A DNA stretch of 16,377 bases from Chlamydiales bacterium (GTDB lineage: Bacteria; Chlamydiota; Chlamydiia; Chlamydiales; JBDQID01): assembly GCA_047611865.1 (NCBI GenBank), contig JBLFWS010000063.1, positions 1 through 16,377 on the forward strand, written 5' to 3'. Position 1 is the first letter of the stretch, and each line of letters begins with the position of its first letter. A program made the translations under genes and the position numbers. The notes beneath the pieces are model-generated. The model was not told the origin of the DNA, did no database searches, and was given only the letters and a program-made list of their open reading frames with translations. Shown here in pieces: positions 2,936 through 15,576 of the stretch.

Positions 2936-3045
2936 TATACTGGAATCGGCCACAAGCTTTAATTTGTATGCTGAGATTTTTGCGCTTCAACAGCCAAAAA
3001 AATCTCTGCCCACAAATTCAAAGTTTGCGGCCGAGTTTAGTTATA
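2936..3045. repeat. Imperfect long inverted repeat (MITE/REP-like)
   Basis: Left arm TCGGCCACAAGCTTTAATTTGTATGCTGAGATTTTTG (from 2946) pairs with the arm ending at 3034 (reverse complement TCGGCCGCAAACTTTGAATTTGTGGGCAGAGATTTTTTTG). The element begins TATACTG and ends TAGTTATA. Confidence 0.8.
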
Positions 3046-3047
3046 TT

Positions 3048-3083
3048 AAAAAAAGCGCCAAGTAGGTTGTGGCGCTTTTCTTA
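3048..3083. terminator. Bidirectional intrinsic terminator between the CT602-like gene and ahpC
   Basis: A7-GCGCCA-AGTAGGTTG-TGGCGC-TTTTCTT: GC stem flanked by A and T tracts, between convergent genes. Confidence 0.8.
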
Positions 3084-3104
3084 TTTGTCCCCAAATTTTC
3101 AAAA

Positions 3105-3710
3105 TTAGTTCAGGAATGAAGCGAGGCCTGCTTCTGTAGGAATCATGGCTTTTTCGCCATTTTTCCAGTTAGCAGGGCAAACTTCTCCATTTTCTTCAAA
3201 GAAATTTAGAGAATCCACCATTCTAATTGCTTCGTCAATGGAGCGTCCAAGAGGAAGGTCGTTTATGAGCTGATGGCGTACTACACCTTTCTTGTCTATG
3301 AGGAACAGACCGCGGAAAGCAATGCCTTCTTCTTCGTTAAGAACACCAAAGCTTCTGGAAATTGTTTTGTTGATGTCTGAGATGATAGGGTATTTGATGC
3401 CTTCGATTCCACCTTGAAGCTTAGGTGTTCTGAGCCATGCGCAGTGAGCATATACACTGTCAATAGAGCAGCCGACGACTTTTGTGGAGCGTTTTTCAAA
3501 CTCAGCAAGCTTTTCCTGGAAGGCGTGAAGCTCTGTTGGGCACACAAAGGTGAAATCTAGTGGGTAAAAGAAGAGTACAACATTTTCTCCAAGGAAGTTT
3601 TCTAAAGAAAAGTCTTCCAGGATAGTTTGCTCTACAACAGCTTTTGCTTTGAATTCAGGGGCTTTTTTCCCGACTAGGGATCTGGGGTAGTTTTCAGAAA
3701 AGTTGTTCAT
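3105..3710 (-). CDS. ahpC: Typical 2-Cys peroxiredoxin (AhpC/TSA)
   Basis: FYPLDFTFVCPTE peroxidatic motif, GEVCPANW resolving motif, SD AGGAG upstream. Confidence 0.96.
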   Translation of the reverse strand: MNNFSENYPRSLVGKKAPEFKAKAVVEQTILEDFSLENFLGENVVLFFYPLDFTFVCPTELHAFQEKLAEFEKRSTKVVGCSIDSVYAHCAWLRTPKLQGGIEGIKYPIISDINKTISRSFGVLNEEEGIAFRGLFLIDKKGVVRHQLINDLPLGRSIDEAIRMVDSLNFFEENGEVCPANWKNGEKAMIPTEAGLASFLN

Positions 3711-8032: not shown

Positions 8033-9721
8033 TTACATCATTCCCATGCCAGGCATTCCGCCCATACCACCCATTCCGCCCATACCGCCCATACCACCCA
8101 TACCACCCATACCGCCGGCCATAGGAGCTACACCGGATTTAGGCTGAGGTTTGTCGGTAATCATAGCTGCGGTCGTCAAAAGCAGTCCGGCAACGGAAGC
8201 TGCATTAACTAGTGCATAGTGAGTAACCATAACAGGGTCAATGACGCCAGCTTCTACCAAGTCGGTAAACTCGTCGGTGAGACCGTTGTAACCCCAGTTG
8301 TCTTCTTTGTGTTCGAAGATTTTTTCTGCGATCAAATTGCCCTGCTTGCCACAGTTGTTGGCAATAGCTGTTGCAGGTTGGAAAGCAGCGAAACGAACGA
8401 TTTCAGCCCCCGTAGCTTCATCACCAATAAGCTTGAGCTTATCAAGAGCTTTAACAGCACGAAGAAGGGCTACTCCACCACCAGGAACGATTCCTTCTGC
8501 AACAGCAGCACGGGTAGCATGTAGAGCATCTTCTACGCGAGCTTTCTTCTCTTTGAGCTCAGTTTCTGTTGCGGCACCAACTTCTACTACAGCAACACCA
8601 CCGACGAGCTTAGCAAGGCGCTCTTCTAGGCTTTCTTTTTCGTAGCTGGAGTCGGAGTTTTCGATCTCGCTGCGGATTTGAGCAACGCGAGATTCAACTT
8701 TTTTCTGACTGCCTAAGCCATCAACGATTGTTGTGTTATCTTTAGTAATTTGGATAGTTTTAGCTTTTCCAAGAACTTCAGGGCCCACTTCATCGAGATT
8801 AAGGCCTATATCTTCTGTAACAACGGTACCACCTGTTAGAACAGCGATATCTTCGAGCATTGCTTTGCGGCGATCACCAAATCCTGGTGCTTTCACTGCG
8901 CATACCTGCATGCCACCTTTTAGCTTGTTAACCACAAGAGTCGCGAGAGCTTCGCCATCTACATCTTCTGCAATGATGAGAAGAGGCTTAGGACTATGTT
9001 CCATGATCTTTTCGAGGATAGGTACAATGTCACGAGCTGTAGAAAGCTTTTTGTCTGCGATAAGTACGTGTGCATTTTCAAGCTCTGTACTCATGCTTTC
9101 TGGATTTGTGATGAAATATGGTGAGAGGTAACCTTTATCGAACTGCATGCCTTCTACAACTTCGAGTGTAGTCTCGATACCCTTTGCTTCGGAAACGGTG
9201 ATGATTCCGTCTTTGCCAACTTTGTCCATAGCTTCGGAGATGATAGAGCCGATGTCTGGGTCGTTATTAGCGGAAATTGTAGCAATTTGCTTAACTTTTT
9301 CCTGGGTATCAATAGGAGTAGCGAGCTTATTGAGTTCAGCGACGATGGCATTAACAGCTTTGTCAATTCCACGTTTGAGGCTCATTGGATTCGCGCCGGC
9401 AGTGATGTTTTTTACGCCTTGTGTGTAGATAGCTTCTGCAAGAACGATAGCTGTAGTTGTTCCATCGCCAGCGGTGTCAGAAGTTTGGGAAGCTACTTGT
9501 TTGACAAGTTGCACACCCATGTTTTCAAATTTATCTTTTAGAGCGATTTCTTTGGCTACGGTAACTCCGTCTTTTGTAGAAGTTGGTGAGCCGAATCCTT
9601 TGTTGATGACTACATTTCGACCTTTTGGGCCCAAAGTAATTTTTACTGCTTTGGCGAGAAGCTTGATCCCTTTAGTAAGGGACTTATTTGCTTCTTCATT
9701 GAATTGCAACATTTTAGACAT
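8033..9721 (-). CDS. groEL: Chaperonin GroEL (Cpn60)
   Basis: [35 protein letters not shown] and GIVPGGG motifs; C-terminal (GGM)7 tail; SD AAGGAG. Confidence 0.99.
8036..8116 (-). repeat. Degenerate 9-nt coding repeat for the GroEL GGM tail
   Basis: Seven GGN-GGN-ATG units followed by PGMGMM. Confidence 0.9.
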
Positions 9722-9757: not shown

Positions 9758-10051
9758 TTAGCTGATAACTGCTAGAACATCATTTTCGGACATGATGAGG
9801 AATTCTTCGTCACCATCTTCATCTTTCACTTCGGTTCCTGCATAAGAGGAAAAGAGAACGCGGTCGCCAACTTTTAGTGATAGAGGTACAGTTTTACCAT
9901 CGTCGTCAGTTTTACCAGGACCGGCGGCAACAACTTCGCCTTCCTTTGGCTTTTCTTGTGCTGAGTCGGGGAGTAGGATCCCGTGTTTAGTGGCTAGAGC
10001 TTTAGATCTTTTCACTAATACTCGGTCATGCAAGGGCTTGAATTTAGACAT
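9758..10051 (-). CDS. groES: Co-chaperonin GroES (Cpn10)
   Basis: FKPLHDRVLV, GILLPDSAQEKP, VGDRVLFSSYAGTEV; SD AGGAG; immediately upstream of groEL. Confidence 0.98.
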   Translation of the reverse strand: MSKFKPLHDRVLVKRSKALATKHGILLPDSAQEKPKEGEVVAAGPGKTDDDGKTVPLSLKVGDRVLFSSYAGTEVKDEDGDEEFLIMSENDVLAVIS

Positions 10052-10113
10052 CTTGTCGACTCCTAAAGTTTTTGTTTTTCTGGTTATCGTTTATACCTTG
10101 TTAGAAAAACAGA

Positions 10114-10143
10114 ATTTTAGGGGGGGGGGGAGTTTTCTGTCAA
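10114..10143 (-). promoter_or_regulatory. groESL sigma66 promoter with a poly-C spacer
   Basis: Minus strand reads TTGACA-GAAAACT-C11-TAAAAT (18-nt spacer), about 60 nt upstream of groES. Confidence 0.8.
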
Positions 10144-10160
10144 GCAAAAGGGGGTATTTT

Positions 10161-10187
10161 TTAGCAGATAGCTTATTAGAGTGCCAA
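10161..10187 (-). promoter_or_regulatory. CIRCE element (HrcA operator), degenerate
   Basis: Minus strand TTGGCACTC-N9-ATCTGCTAA versus consensus TTAGCACTC-N9-GAGTGCTAA; correct 9-nt spacer; 17 nt upstream of the groESL -35 box. Confidence 0.8.
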
Positions 10188-10302
10188 ATAGGTCGAGTAA
10201 TCCTTTGGTTTTGATATTGATGGGGGTCTAATTAGAGCGAGGCTTGTAATAGAGGATTTGTGAGATTTTGGAAAGAATGCACGGTAGGGCATAGTTGTTG
10301 TT

Positions 10303-10469
10303 ATATACTGTGCGGGGGGCAATTTGATGCCTTTCCACCCAGAGATTTTGGTGTCTGGTGCCGTGCAGAGACCGAAGATAGCCACTTCGTGCGCTGCTGA
10401 GGTCGAGCACGGTGCCAGGCATCAAAAGATCGGGTGAGAAGCTATCAAATTGCTCACCGTGTAGTATAT
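10303..10469 (+). repeat. 167-nt rod-like hairpin element (TATAC...GTATA); candidate MITE or structured RNA
   Basis: Outer stem 10303-10330/10441-10469, middle stem CACCC/GGGTG, inner 21-bp stem 10346-10366/10407-10427. Confidence 0.85.
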
Positions 10470-10512
10470 TCTTAAATTGATATAAATAAGACACATGAGT
10501 GTTTTCTTTGAT

Positions 10513-11784
10513 TTACTTTTGAGCTACAGGGGCTCTGGAATACTGGGGATTAAGGTATTTTTTCCGTAGCTTGAGGAATTTATGCCTTCTTTCTTCATGG
10601 AGGGCAATAAGGGCCCAGCCGACATACTTTTTTTCTGAAATGATCTGATAGACTTCTTCAGTCCCATTGACCTTACAGAACATCTCTTTGCGATGAGCTG
10701 ATTTTTTTAAGCCCTCTTTAAATTTGGAGGGATAAAGGCTTTTTAGGATTCCTATAATCAAGTATTGAGTGGAGACGGGTTTGTAAATAGCGGGATTGGT
10801 AATGATGATTCGGATTCCGTGACAGTCTTTGCCTTGGAATTTTCCATAAAAGGGTTTGTAATGAAAAGGCTGAAAGTGGACACCAGGTAAATTTTGCTTG
10901 TTGAGGTGTTTGGCAAAGATGTCTGCATCAACCCAGGGTGCTCCAACTAATTTAAAGGGTAATGTATAGCCAATACCAATGCTAACGATTTGGAGCTCTC
11001 CTAAGATCCCGGTAGTAGGGTAGTAAAATGCTGTGTCGTCTTCAGGAATATGTGGACTTGTGGGTATCCATGGCAGGCCTGTGTCGTGAAAGGTCATATC
11101 ACGAGTCCAACCTCGCATGGGGACAACCGTTAAATCACAATCTACTTTGTATTCATTATTGAAAAACTGGGCTAACTCTCCTACGGTCATTCCGTGGCAG
11201 TAAGGTACATTGATATAGCCTACATATGAGCGCCAGGAATTATCGAGCATCGGGCCATCAACAACGAGTCCTCCCATGGGATTTGGGCGGTCGAGGACTA
11301 CGACTTTAATTTTGCGCTTAGCCGCCTCCTCCATGGCGTAGAATAATGTAGTGATGTAGGTGTAGGAGCGGGAGCCAATATCTTGAATGTCATAGATAAG
11401 GATGTCTATATCTTTCAGCATTTCAGGGGTAGGTCGTCTTGTTGCCCCATGCAATGAATAGATAGGGATATCGTCCTTACCCTTTGAAGTTTCAATGTTT
11501 TCAGCAGCATACGCTAAGCCACTAATTCCATGTTCCGGAGCAAACAAAGCTACGAGATTTGCTCGAGATTTAATCGCTTCAATGCTGCTTTCCATATGCC
11601 GGTTGATGGCTGTATGATTCGTGATAAGACCTACACGCTTTCCATCGAGGATTTTGAGATGATCCGTACTACATAAAATATCGATCCCTACGGAAATTTT
11701 TGCTCCAGAGGGCGATGCGTCAACGGAGTGTTGATGGGCAAGAAGGCAGGAAAGTATTAGTAGAAAGAGCAATTTTTTTTTCAT
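10513..11784 (-). CDS. namZ: Exo-beta-N-acetylmuramidase NamZ family (DUF1343/YbbC), with signal peptide
   Basis: RVGLITNHT, LFAPEHG, YDIQDIGSRSYTY, VLDRPNP, HGMTVGELA and WIPTSPHIP motifs; N-terminal MKKK-hydrophobic-VDA signal peptide. Confidence 0.9.
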   Translation of the reverse strand: MKKKLLFLLILSCLLAHQHSVDASPSGAKISVGIDILCSTDHLKILDGKRVGLITNHTAINRHMESSIEAIKSRANLVALFAPEHGISGLAYAAENIETSKGKDDIPIYSLHGATRRPTPEMLKDIDILIYDIQDIGSRSYTYITTLFYAMEEAAKRKIKVVVLDRPNPMGGLVVDGPMLDNSWRSYVGYINVPYCHGMTVGELAQFFNNEYKVDCDLTVVPMRGWTRDMTFHDTGLPWIPTSPHIPEDDTAFYYPTTGILGELQIVSIGIGYTLPFKLVGAPWVDADIFAKHLNKQNLPGVHFQPFHYKPFYGKFQGKDCHGIRIIITNPAIYKPVSTQYLIIGILKSLYPSKFKEGLKKSAHRKEMFCKVNGTEEVYQIISEKKYVGWALIALHEERRHKFLKLRKKYLNPQYSRAPVAQK

Positions 11785-14900: not shown

Positions 14901-15576
14901 AGGTCTGCCAACAGAAAGAGCCATACTTACCGAAGGGCCGATGGATTTTTATGAGATGATCTCTCAGCAGAGCTTTAGTCATCAGGAAAAGGGATTGTGG
15001 CAGGCGAGCATTGGCAGTTATGCTTTTTGGTGGCATTACTACAAATTAGATCATGATTATAGCCGCTTAGTTGGCCAGGATAATGTCATACGTTACCTTC
15101 CACGAAAGGCGATATGTCTACGCTTACAAAAGGGTGATAGCTTCTTATCTTTTGTACAGGTTTGTGCGGCAATAGTCTGTTGTAAGGCCAAGGTGGAGAT
15201 AAGTGCGAGCAAGGAAGTTATGGGTGAGTTTTGTGATGATAACATAAAGCGTTTTCCTGGCTTTTCATTTGCGGAAGAAGATGAACTTACCTTGATAGAC
15301 CGTTTGCGTTCTGGGGAGATTAAGCGACTACGCGTATTATCAACAGTTAGCGAAGCCTTGGTTCGTGCTGTAGCTGAGACTGGCTGTTACTTAGCCCGTC
15401 AGCCTGTGTTAGCGAATGGTCGGGTAGAATTATTGCAGTATCTCTCAGAGGTAAGCATTAGTAAAGACTACCATAGATATGGAAACTTAGGAACCCGTGA
15501 GCAGGAGAAGCGTAGGCCATTGCCTCGGCCGATCACTCAGACGAATTTATCTGTACGACGCGTCAAGGTAAGCTAG
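11914..15576 (+). CDS. putA: Bifunctional proline dehydrogenase / glutamate-gamma-semialdehyde (P5C) dehydrogenase, no N-terminal RHH domain evident
   Basis: PRODH motifs NLDMEEY, IVLQAYL, RVVKGAN, YLIRRLDEN; ALDH motifs PWNFP, ETGGKNA, AGQKCSA, EFFGP, RQPFGG; SD GGAGG. Confidence 0.96.
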   Translation: MGSFSQRMQKAKQRLEVIKGKKLSVKERCGASIELASLMLEEAQSIQNPREKAIQDMLSRMMKDPDGKAFTNSFTDQCFRSERSDRVANQLVYLIESFGVPKFLPFWDRVKLSLFKLMGRGMSRFLVPLVSYVLRKETSDVIIPGERKLLNKHMLRRFNEGVRVNLNHLGEAILGEGEAQRRLQLYLDDLAKPEIEYVSVKISTICSQLNLLAWDETLEGMAERLRTLYREAMKYEFTYPDGRRAPKFVNLDMEEYRDLHLTVAIFKKILDEEEFRQHSAGIVLQAYLPDSYLMQQELTAWSIRRLAKGGAPIKIRVVKGANLAMEQVEASLNGWAQAPYENKVDVDANYKRMLLYGFEPKRAKAVHIGVGSHNLFDIAFALLLRSEKNVEQEVEFEMLEGMADHMREVVQELSGGMLLYCPVARKHEFQNAVAYLIRRLDENTGEENFLGQSFGMHMGSEAWKSQVEKFEKSCEIVKTVSYVPRRSQNRLEGIGNMSISTPFDNDATTDWSLKKNREWAQGLLSKWSVREHPPAVPLVISGGTVCPHEAKGIGQDPSRPGHILYNYYLADESHVEKALESSVEARNSWSEISVSERSEIGFAIAQGLRRHRGELIGVMVADAGKVIPEADSEVSEAIDFVEYYRRSMEEVQACEDLELTAKGTVLVTPPWNFPCAIPVGGIFAALMTGNTVIFKPAPETVLVGWHVAQVFWAAGVPKDVLQFINCLDEPVGSKLIADPRVSCVILTGATDTAKLFWRLRPELDLVAETGGKNAIIVTEMADRDLAVKDIVHSAFGHAGQKCSAASLLVCESEVYDSPDFRRQLRDAAASLKVGSAWELSTEVNPLIHEPNDTLQKGLTTLEAGEEWLLEPKQSPVNPQLWSPGIKFGVKKGSASHQKEFFGPLLSVMRSEDLDEAIDIVNGTPYGLTSGLHSLDEREHEIWLDKIEAGNCYINRGITGAIVRRQPFGGCKESCFGFGTKPGGPNYLIQFLHLAQKGLPTERAILTEGPMDFYEMISQQSFSHQEKGLWQASIGSYAFWWHYYKLDHDYSRLVGQDNVIRYLPRKAICLRLQKGDSFLSFVQVCAAIVCCKAKVEISASKEVMGEFCDDNIKRFPGFSFAEEDELTLIDRLRSGEIKRLRVLSTVSEALVRAVAETGCYLARQPVLANGRVELLQYLSEVSISKDYHRYGNLGTREQEKRRPLPRPITQTNLSVRRVKVS

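Follow-up and report, generated by a model that had tools for sequence, protein, structure and literature searches.

A TA-flanked palindrome upstream of groESL in a Chlamydiales genome: a probable IS630/Tc1-mariner-type MITE whose core appears to be selected on one strand

The element between namZ and groESL

The window analysed here is a 16,377-nt stretch of DNA from a Chlamydiales draft genome (the source genome, G000; 3.59 Mb in 272 contigs). A 167-nt hairpin, predicted from the letters of the DNA at 10303-10469, is indeed present between a NamZ-family gene and the promoter region of groESL, and both of its strands were folded. The two open reading frames that overlap it (10228-10494 and 10176-10385, both on the minus strand) match no Pfam family, and a PutA-like gene lies on the plus strand beyond the NamZ-family gene. 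The features of the locus are as follows.

8033-9721, minus strand: groEL, a context gene
9758-10051, minus strand: groES (Cpn10), assigned by Pfam; groEL comes next
10143-10114, minus strand: promoter-like site before groES, TTGACA-18-TAAAAT, 11/12, a consensus match only
10304-10305: left TA flank, at whose first base (10304) identity with the second copy begins; candidate target-site duplication
10306-10466, plus strand (the folding, model-sense strand): putative MITE body, TAC...GTA, 161 nt, assigned from a 93% identical second copy and the fold energies
10306-10332, plus strand: 5' arm of the outer stem (terminal inverted repeat), of subfamily-specific sequence, pairing with 10440-10466
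10333-10439, plus strand: conserved structured core; covariance model R1 scores 90.3 bits on the plus strand and 36.8 bits on the minus strand
10344-10345, plus strand: GA of the first GA-opposite-GA motif, partner 10428-10429; GA in 25/35 aligned cores on each side
10346-10366, plus strand: 5' strand of the inner stem (21 bp, four G.U) in the fold
10368-10375, plus strand: GA-GACC-GA, one strand of a 4-bp helix between conserved GAs (flanking GA in 30/35 and 24/35)
10376-10398, plus strand: apical hairpin of variable sequence (helix 4 of R1: 96% paired, 5/5 pairs covary)
10399-10406, plus strand: GA-GGTC-GA, partner strand of the 4-bp helix (flanking GA in 26/35 and 30/35)
10407-10427, plus strand: 3' strand of the inner stem, from the fold and the copy-to-copy comparison
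10428-10429, plus strand: GA partner of 10344-10345, same motif
10440-10466, plus strand: 3' arm of the outer stem (terminal inverted repeat), from the fold
10467-10468: right TA flank; identity with the second copy stops at 10468
10513-11784, minus strand: NamZ-family gene (Pfam NamZ_N and NamZ_C), its stop codon 44 nt from the element

Folded as RNA, the plus strand of 10303-10469 yields -100.2 kcal/mol (z -12.0, with 0/200 shuffles as good) and the minus strand -68.9 kcal/mol (z -7.0). The plus-strand fold is one long rod of 71 pairs, 11 of them G.U. When the element is compared with its own reverse complement under Watson-Crick-only scoring, 60 Watson-Crick, 11 G.T, 1 A.C and 9 transversion-type oppositions are found; it is palindromic over its whole length, and its ends pair across 13+13 positions. 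The arm sequences differ in other subfamilies.

The stems agree largely with the original prediction. The inner stem is fully paired (21/21, 10346-10366 with 10407-10427) with the four G.U expected. The outer stem does bear G.U pairs, but the count of four is too low, since five are found in 26 pairs (10310, 10311, 10312, 10318 and 10329), and a sixth occurs in a CUUU/GAAG step. The absence of A-C oppositions holds in the two main stems; one C.A opposition lies between them (10335/10437). The GA/AG motif suspected at 10344-10345/10428-10429 is real and conserved in the family. At the apex, the GACC/GGUC helix (10370-10373/10401-10404) is backed by covariation, but the proposed CGAAG/CTTCG helix and the branching are unsupported; the family consensus is an unbranched rod (0 branch points in R1), and the GA of CGAAG forms part of a conserved unpaired motif.

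The promoter-like site before groES is 160 nt from the element, which lies upstream of it, and no promoter-like or terminator-like site is predicted on the plus strand of 10040-10530, nor any terminator-like site around the element. The position of the element beside groESL is most likely incidental, and nothing suggests a specific role for groESL. The region has some further features of its own. A run of 11 G at 10121-10131 lies within the 18-nt spacer of the groES promoter-like site (-35 at 10143-10138, -10 at 10119-10114, minus strand); Logan contigs of two metagenome runs (X2 and X3) end at this run, and in a relative from a marine metagenome (run X5) A, T, C and T replace G at 10126-10129. 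The run could be a length-variable promoter spacer or merely an assembly problem. In the X5 relative, groES (33 differences in 475 nt) and namZ are found on different contigs, both of which run on into unlike sequence, implying that namZ and groES have not stayed adjacent even in close relatives. At 10161-10187, TTAGCAgat-N9-GAGTGCcaa forms an imperfect inverted repeat that presumably resembles the CIRCE operator of heat-shock operons; it is located upstream of the predicted -35, which would be an unusual place for such an operator.

A second copy of the element in the source genome (G000:C43:20796-20959) is 93% identical and has unrelated flanks, its neighbours being a UvrD-type helicase gene and an unannotated ORF that diverge from each other. 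Identity between the two copies starts and stops sharply at TATAC...GTATA, and both have the termini TA/TAC...GTA/TA, a TA that is a duplication and a TA that is the element end looking alike in the window copy. The second copy folds at -110.9 on the same element strand versus -77.6 on the other. The 12 differences (11 substitutions and 1 indel) include a paired double change from G.U to C-G at 10351/10422 and three G.U/A-U switches. Four changes (10344, 10378, 10442 and 10456) make a mismatch of the window copy a pair in the second, one (10318) makes a G.U of the window copy a U.U mismatch, and two differences (one substitution and the indel) fall in loops; none creates an A.C on the plus strand. 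The strands carrying the copies have GC skews of +0.13 (window) and -0.13 (second copy), and G.T lies on the same element strand in both.

A structured core common to many palindromes

Minus-strand self-comparison of the source genome reveals 187 whole-length self-palindromes, 95 of which are at least 135 nt long. Those of 140-175 nt number 49, the two copies of this element included, and BLAST sorts them into clusters of 16, 12, 8, 3, 2, 2 and 2 with four singletons, most being without a BLAST link to this element. When oriented to the better-folding strand and aligned, 24 other palindromes of ~165 nt share its architecture and short motifs, namely A-GA-UUUU, a ~13-bp stem containing YUG, GGAGAUCGAAG, an apical hairpin, YGAGAUCGAGC, the returning stem and AAAAGAUC. 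RNAalifold on the alignment of the ~165-nt palindromes gives 29 pairs, 22 with compensatory changes. The central core is described by the covariance model R1, which has 106 positions, 33 pairs and no branch.

R1 detects at least 88 matches at 59 or more loci in the source genome, which is a lower bound from 150 scored candidates out of 1278, and its forward scores are about twice the reverse; the element's own subfamily has two copies there. Of 150 other genomes of the order, 32 match (E <=0.001), representing at least 16 families; many of these contain 26 or more candidates each, so the per-genome counts are lower bounds. In a second sample of genomes of the same order, R1 is found in 23/150, and in 0/27 of a family of ~1.1-Mb genomes. 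The complete genomes G148, G118 and G177 have at least 13-16 copies. The 29 homologues, one per other genome, are hairpins of ~156-193 nt when trimmed to the outermost pair, and most of those whose ends were inspected by eye are TA-flanked (TATACC..., CTAGTGC..., TTAGGG...).

Homology to other genomes is detectable only through the covariance model. A BLAST-type search with the 167-nt sequence found it in 0/60 relatives; in 400 genomes of the order, G000 included, it gave in four others only 20-35-nt matches (E 0.001-0.008), which we read as chance. Exact-pattern scans found no match in genome contigs, viral contigs and metagenome contigs, and a further metagenome scan gave three loci that are alike over 19-21 nt only. 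At the Rfam gathering threshold only a tRNA passes in the whole window, and at E <=10 a single chance snoRNA match, outside the hairpin, appears in 10200-10560; the comparison with 6S, SRP and other families that the original prediction had proposed thus gives no 6S-like or other match to the hairpin. The only models matched by 15 loci of the family are those of plant miRNA precursors, at scores well short of the threshold (55.1 bits at best vs 249). Hammerhead-like words (CUGAUGA, GAAAC) seen in some subfamilies were rejected as a lead, being neither conserved nor matched in Rfam.

Other kinds of palindrome occur in the same genome. A second ~167-nt family of 16 copies has the ends (C)TAGGTCGTGTATTAAAATTAGGG, TA or CTAG flanks and a different core (for example C79:7009-7177, C70:13189-13357 and C226:4891-5059), and is also strand-biased (e.g. 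G.T 9 vs A.C 1; 7 vs 0). Longer palindromes of the whole-length type come in size classes of 228-231, 276-295, 348-356, 453-482 and 841 nt (C61:2996-3477, C85:7609-8090, C149:5762-6232, C58:10092-10556, C18:10207-11047 and others); strand bias is evident in the 276-290-nt class (13-15 vs 3-5) and hardly so in the 228-231-nt and 453-482-nt classes. Adjoining or overlapping palindromes (C103:2828-3012 with 3012-3179; C48:14726-14924 with 14907-15073) represent tandem or nested insertions.

To evaluate the core, 35 forward cores (8 from the source genome and 27 from 27 other genomes) were aligned by fitting them to R1. Standard pairs occupy 91.1% of the cells versus 68.0% in shuffles, with 0/500 shuffles reaching 91.1%, and when the partners are slid by 1-3 columns as a control, 34-44% are paired. 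The covariation that the original prediction had asked for is seen in 33/33 model pairs, each changed on both sides, in an alignment that was itself fitted to the model. Helix 3 of R1 (4 bp) is 100% paired in the 35 sequences with 4/4 pairs covarying, its variants being GAUC/GAUC, GACC/GGUC (the window copy), GAAC/GUUC, GUUC/GAAC and GCCU/AGGC. Since any palindrome family covaries, and such covariation can also be maintained by DNA-level processes and is alone no proof of a folded strand, the telling features are those that break palindromic symmetry.

Six unpaired GA dinucleotides, each in 24-30 of the 35 cores (28 genomes), make up three GA-opposite-GA motifs, of which one lies at the UUUU/AAAA junction and one on either side of the 4-bp helix; on the opposite strand these are pyrimidine-pyrimidine oppositions. 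The cells at the 33 model pairs comprise 937 Watson-Crick, 112 G.T, 18 A.C and 84 other combinations. Over 97 long palindromes (the 95 plus the two element copies), whichever of G.T and A.C is more frequent adds up to 682 and the less frequent to 266, compared with a symmetric expectation for the more frequent class of 592 and a maximum of 626 in 2000 simulations, the copies being not independent. The bias in recent within-subfamily variants is mild and weaker than in the consensus sequences: consensus Watson-Crick pairs have changed to G.U in 38 cases, to A.C in 22 and to other mismatches in 37, and 25 double changes lead from one Watson-Crick pair to another. The better fold lies on the model strand in 29/29 homologues from other genomes. 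Together with the two copies and the 112 to 18 ratio, this bears out the earlier claim that one strand is specifically the folding one. With DNA parameters the core folds at -28.7 vs -22.3 kcal/mol, a strand difference of 6.4, and with RNA parameters the strands of the whole element differ by ~31 kcal/mol.

Mobility, strand asymmetry and their interpretation

Every subfamily in the source genome is TA-bounded (TA/TAC..., C-TA/GTAC...GTAC/TA-G, TA/GGTCGTG...), and CTAG contexts are frequent. In another genus, g84, an element of genome G118 lies between TA and TA; in genomes G148 and G097 the matching flanks (84-90% identity) meet at one TA. One filled and two empty sites thus constitute an insertion polymorphism with TA duplication. 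At the other two of the three sites tried in this genus, multi-copy IS sequence adjoins the element. At two G118 loci (L099 and L104), core-bearing elements lie beside multi-copy sequence that adjoins DDE_3 matches (e.g. G148:C1:949527-950346), indicating that MITEs and IS630-type copies cluster in g84. For the insertion beside groESL, no empty site was found, and no joint appears in four metagenome (DNA) runs; contigs of runs X2 and X3 cover both element copies.

The source genome contains 12 DDE_3 matches. A complete, TA-flanked IS (G000:C121:145-1344) encodes a 316-aa ORF that scores 195 bits against the NCBIfam model 'IS630 family transposase' (cut-off 100), and at both of its ends 21/23 bases agree with the 5' ends of core-bearing MITEs from two sister subfamilies, C2:47617 and C18:6398. 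The inverted ends of another IS630-family IS, located on C11, are perfect over 17 nt, start with TAGTGC and resemble those of a further subfamily. A group-c end beside the C11 transposase was considered as the end of this IS and rejected, as it is a separate partial element and the IS has its own 17-nt inverted repeats. No IS with the ends of the present subfamily (TATACTGTGCGG...) is found in the source assembly; these ends have only TATAC and one further base in common with the C121 IS, and a genome-wide search with the 14-nt ends gives 29 loose matches, none paired at IS distance except the two known copies.

Across the 150 genomes, DDE_3 occurs in 12/32 core-positive and 32/118 core-negative genomes, Y1_Tnp in 20/32 and 51/117 (12/32 core-positive genomes are without it), and seven core-positive genomes have neither, in a set where many assemblies are incomplete and the genomes are related and not independent. 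Such co-occurrence fails to single out the mobilising enzyme, and the IS630-type link by this measure is only weak. There are five Y1_Tnp matches in the source genome. One Y1_Tnp (HUH transposase) gene (C24:29554-29892, 155 aa) is 130 nt from a 279-nt palindrome (C24:29143-29421; G.T 11 vs A.C 2), which may be a separate element family moving as single-stranded DNA.

The multiple copies, the insertion at TA and the ends that sister subfamilies have in common with an IS630-family IS point to a MITE of the IS630/Tc1-mariner type. A mobile element had been the other alternative of the original prediction, and its own copy-number test (two subfamily copies, at least 59 core loci), the TA flanks and the filled/empty site polymorphism in relatives all speak for it.

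The folding strand has no preference relative to neighbouring genes. The 49 elements of the source genome give 9 co-directional, 10 antisense, 16 convergent and 9 divergent arrangements, and those of other genomes 18, 18, 19 and 12, respectively. Relative to GC skew, the model strand coincides with the C-rich strand in 57/71 copies from eight other genomes (binomial p ~3e-7): G118 10/10, two of these with the skew taken from windows beside the match, G037 23/28, G097 5/6, G148 3/4, G161 3/3, G108 2/2, G177 9/15 and G218 2/3. In the source genome the distribution is 34 vs 25 (34/59 C-rich), which is not significant. On contig C4 of G118, the matches below 0.6 Mb are all plus (5/5) and those above 1.2 Mb all minus (5/5), so that orientation follows the chromosome arm; the orientation loci (L098-L157) lie on this contig and on C9, C16, C17 and C31 of G037.

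Deamination bias would place G.T on the G-rich strand. Since the G.T-bearing strand is mostly C-rich in the other genomes, the bias is opposite to this expectation, and copies on opposite GC skew keep G.T on the same element strand, which argues against a mutational artefact. The strand asymmetry seems to have consequences at the DNA level: the folding strand would mostly lie on the leading-strand template, where it is seldom single-stranded. Either better survival of copies in the orientation less prone to form hairpins or a preference at insertion could underlie the orientation bias.

We conclude, with a probability of about 0.8, that 10304-10468 is a non-autonomous IS630/Tc1-mariner-type MITE whose ~105-nt core is under selection while the model strand is single-stranded. 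According to this reading, a 161-nt element, palindromic throughout, would have entered a TA that lies between namZ and the groESL promoter region, and IS630-family transposases would move core-bearing elements in trans by cut-and-paste at TA. A conserved core that folds well on one strand hints at such a single-stranded stage. The single-stranded state may be a transcribed RNA hairpin, to which we give roughly even odds; RNA is favoured because the energy gain from G.U is large in RNA (~31, whole element) and small in DNA (~6, core), which speaks mildly for RNA as the form in which the strong G.U excess arose by selection. We see a hairpin of single-stranded DNA, formed during replication or transposition, as clearly less probable, and something other than these two takes the smaller share that is left.

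A more ambitious proposal is that the core is a structured functional RNA or single-stranded DNA module inside IS630-type MITEs, order-wide and read by a protein, which we regard as possible though on the doubtful side. If true, rod-shaped nucleic acids bearing three tandem G.A motifs would form a mobile family, candidate roles would be those of a transposase regulator, an RNase III-type processing signal or an amplification factor, and the strand asymmetry of the core would also determine which insertions survive replication.

The first option of the original prediction, an ncRNA antisense to namZ-groESL, does not survive the random orientation relative to genes and the unrelated context of the second copy. 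Put more generally, a stand-alone structured ncRNA gene in two copies, expressed from the plus strand and regulating the namZ-groESL junction as an antisense RNA or otherwise, would account for the very stable and strand-specific plus-strand fold and for stem changes between the copies that keep pairing; TATACT at the 5' end even looks like a -10 hexamer by eye, although the promoter scan is silent. We consider such a gene very unlikely, as the core is present at 59 or more source-genome loci and in many other genomes, in random orientation (9 co-directional, 10 antisense, 16 convergent and 9 divergent), with the second copy in an unrelated context, no plus-strand promoter- or terminator-like site in 10040-10530, no Rfam match, and ends that are TA-flanked inverted repeats of the transposon type. 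Just as improbable is a neutrally decaying palindrome that acquired its G.T excess from strand-asymmetric mutation (replication- or transcription-linked deamination) without selection on the fold. The window copy alone would fit this, its plus strand being G- and T-rich (GC skew +0.13) as deamination predicts, and so would the modest 38 (G.U) vs 22 (A.C) among recent within-subfamily variants. But G.T stands at the same positions in the second copy, whose strand has a skew of -0.13, the G.T-rich strand is the C-rich one in 57/71 copies of eight genomes and 34/59 of the source genome, six unpaired GAs that break the palindrome are kept in 24-30/35 cores from 28 genomes, and the 25 double Watson-Crick changes within subfamilies also argue against neutral decay.

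Somewhat better placed, yet still unlikely, is a single-stranded DNA element moved by an HUH/Y1 transposase (IS200/IS605-derived or REP/RAYT-like), with the folding strand as the active one. The fold is strand-specific with DNA parameters as well (core -28.7 vs -22.3 kcal/mol), the source genome has five Y1_Tnp matches, Y1_Tnp is found in 20/32 core-positive vs 51/117 core-negative genomes, and in other genomes the elements show an orientation bias with respect to GC skew (57/71). IS200/IS605 elements, however, are not known to have target duplications or terminal inverted repeats, whereas this element has inverted ends and its family duplicates TA, and the TA duplication at the filled/empty site is an IS630/Tc1 signature. 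Sister subfamilies have ends that match an IS630-family IS and not a Y1 element, and 12/32 core-positive genomes are without Y1_Tnp. The strand bias of IS200/IS605 elements is the opposite of having the folding strand on the leading-strand template, and here the folding strand is mostly on the C-rich strand, that is, the leading-strand template.

Comparison with known repeats

Integron attC sites are imperfect palindromes of which only one strand folds into the active form, and in sedentary chromosomal integrons this folding strand is kept on the leading-strand template. The chlamydial element likewise has one folding strand, but the likeness is an analogy only, and neither an integrase nor a cassette structure accompanies it.

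Among described repeats the nearest parallel is the 107-bp RUP (repeat unit of pneumococcus). This MITE inserts at TA, has its ends in common with IS630-Spn1 and is presumably mobilised by that IS (PMC2229807). The two are likened by description, not by sequence: both are small, non-coding intergenic repeats that insert at TA, with terminal inverted repeats (in the chlamydial case those of sister subfamilies) resembling the ends of an IS630-family element in the same genome. Unlike RUP, the chlamydial element belongs to another phylum, is longer (~165 nt), is a whole-length palindrome, and has subfamilies that share the core and not the ends. The part of PMC2229807 used here makes no mention, for RUP, of the G.U strand bias and GA motifs seen in the chlamydial element.

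The ERIC/IRU sequences of enterobacteria are ~127-bp intergenic imperfect palindromes, a likeness to the present element, whose RNA hairpin acts on neighbouring transcripts in an orientation-dependent manner (PMC2229807). In contrast, the orientation of the chlamydial elements is biased with respect to GC skew and random with respect to genes, so that nothing points to a role in host mRNAs. The Correia elements (CREE/NEMIS) of Neisseria duplicate TA. Their transcript hairpins are bound or cut by RNase III, they can alter the expression of adjacent genes, and, by description, they resemble the chlamydial element in having inverted repeats around a conserved core (PMC2649163). They differ in that the chlamydial core is conserved across an order, under different ends.

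A literature search for MITEs or palindromic hairpin repeats in chlamydiae (Parachlamydia included) found no paper, and the word stem 'chlamyd' is absent from a 2024 review of prokaryotic MITEs. The elements fill intergenic space in chlamydial metagenome-assembled genomes, where they mimic ncRNA genes and terminators, and annotation that does not model them will go astray. Should the core act as RNA or single-stranded DNA, it would be a tractable example of how a DNA transposon carries and spreads a non-coding function, and the tolerance of these genomes for palindromes of such length would have an explanation.

The kind of mechanism is already known, that of a TA-inserting, IS630-associated MITE comparable with RUP, Correia and ERIC. 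The element stands out by the order-wide structured core under varying ends, its G.U/G.A strand specificity and an orientation that is biased with respect to replication skew. A MITE is usually defined by its ends, with the interior treated as filler; here the reverse applies, a structured and strand-specific core being kept under different ends in many families of environmental chlamydiae.
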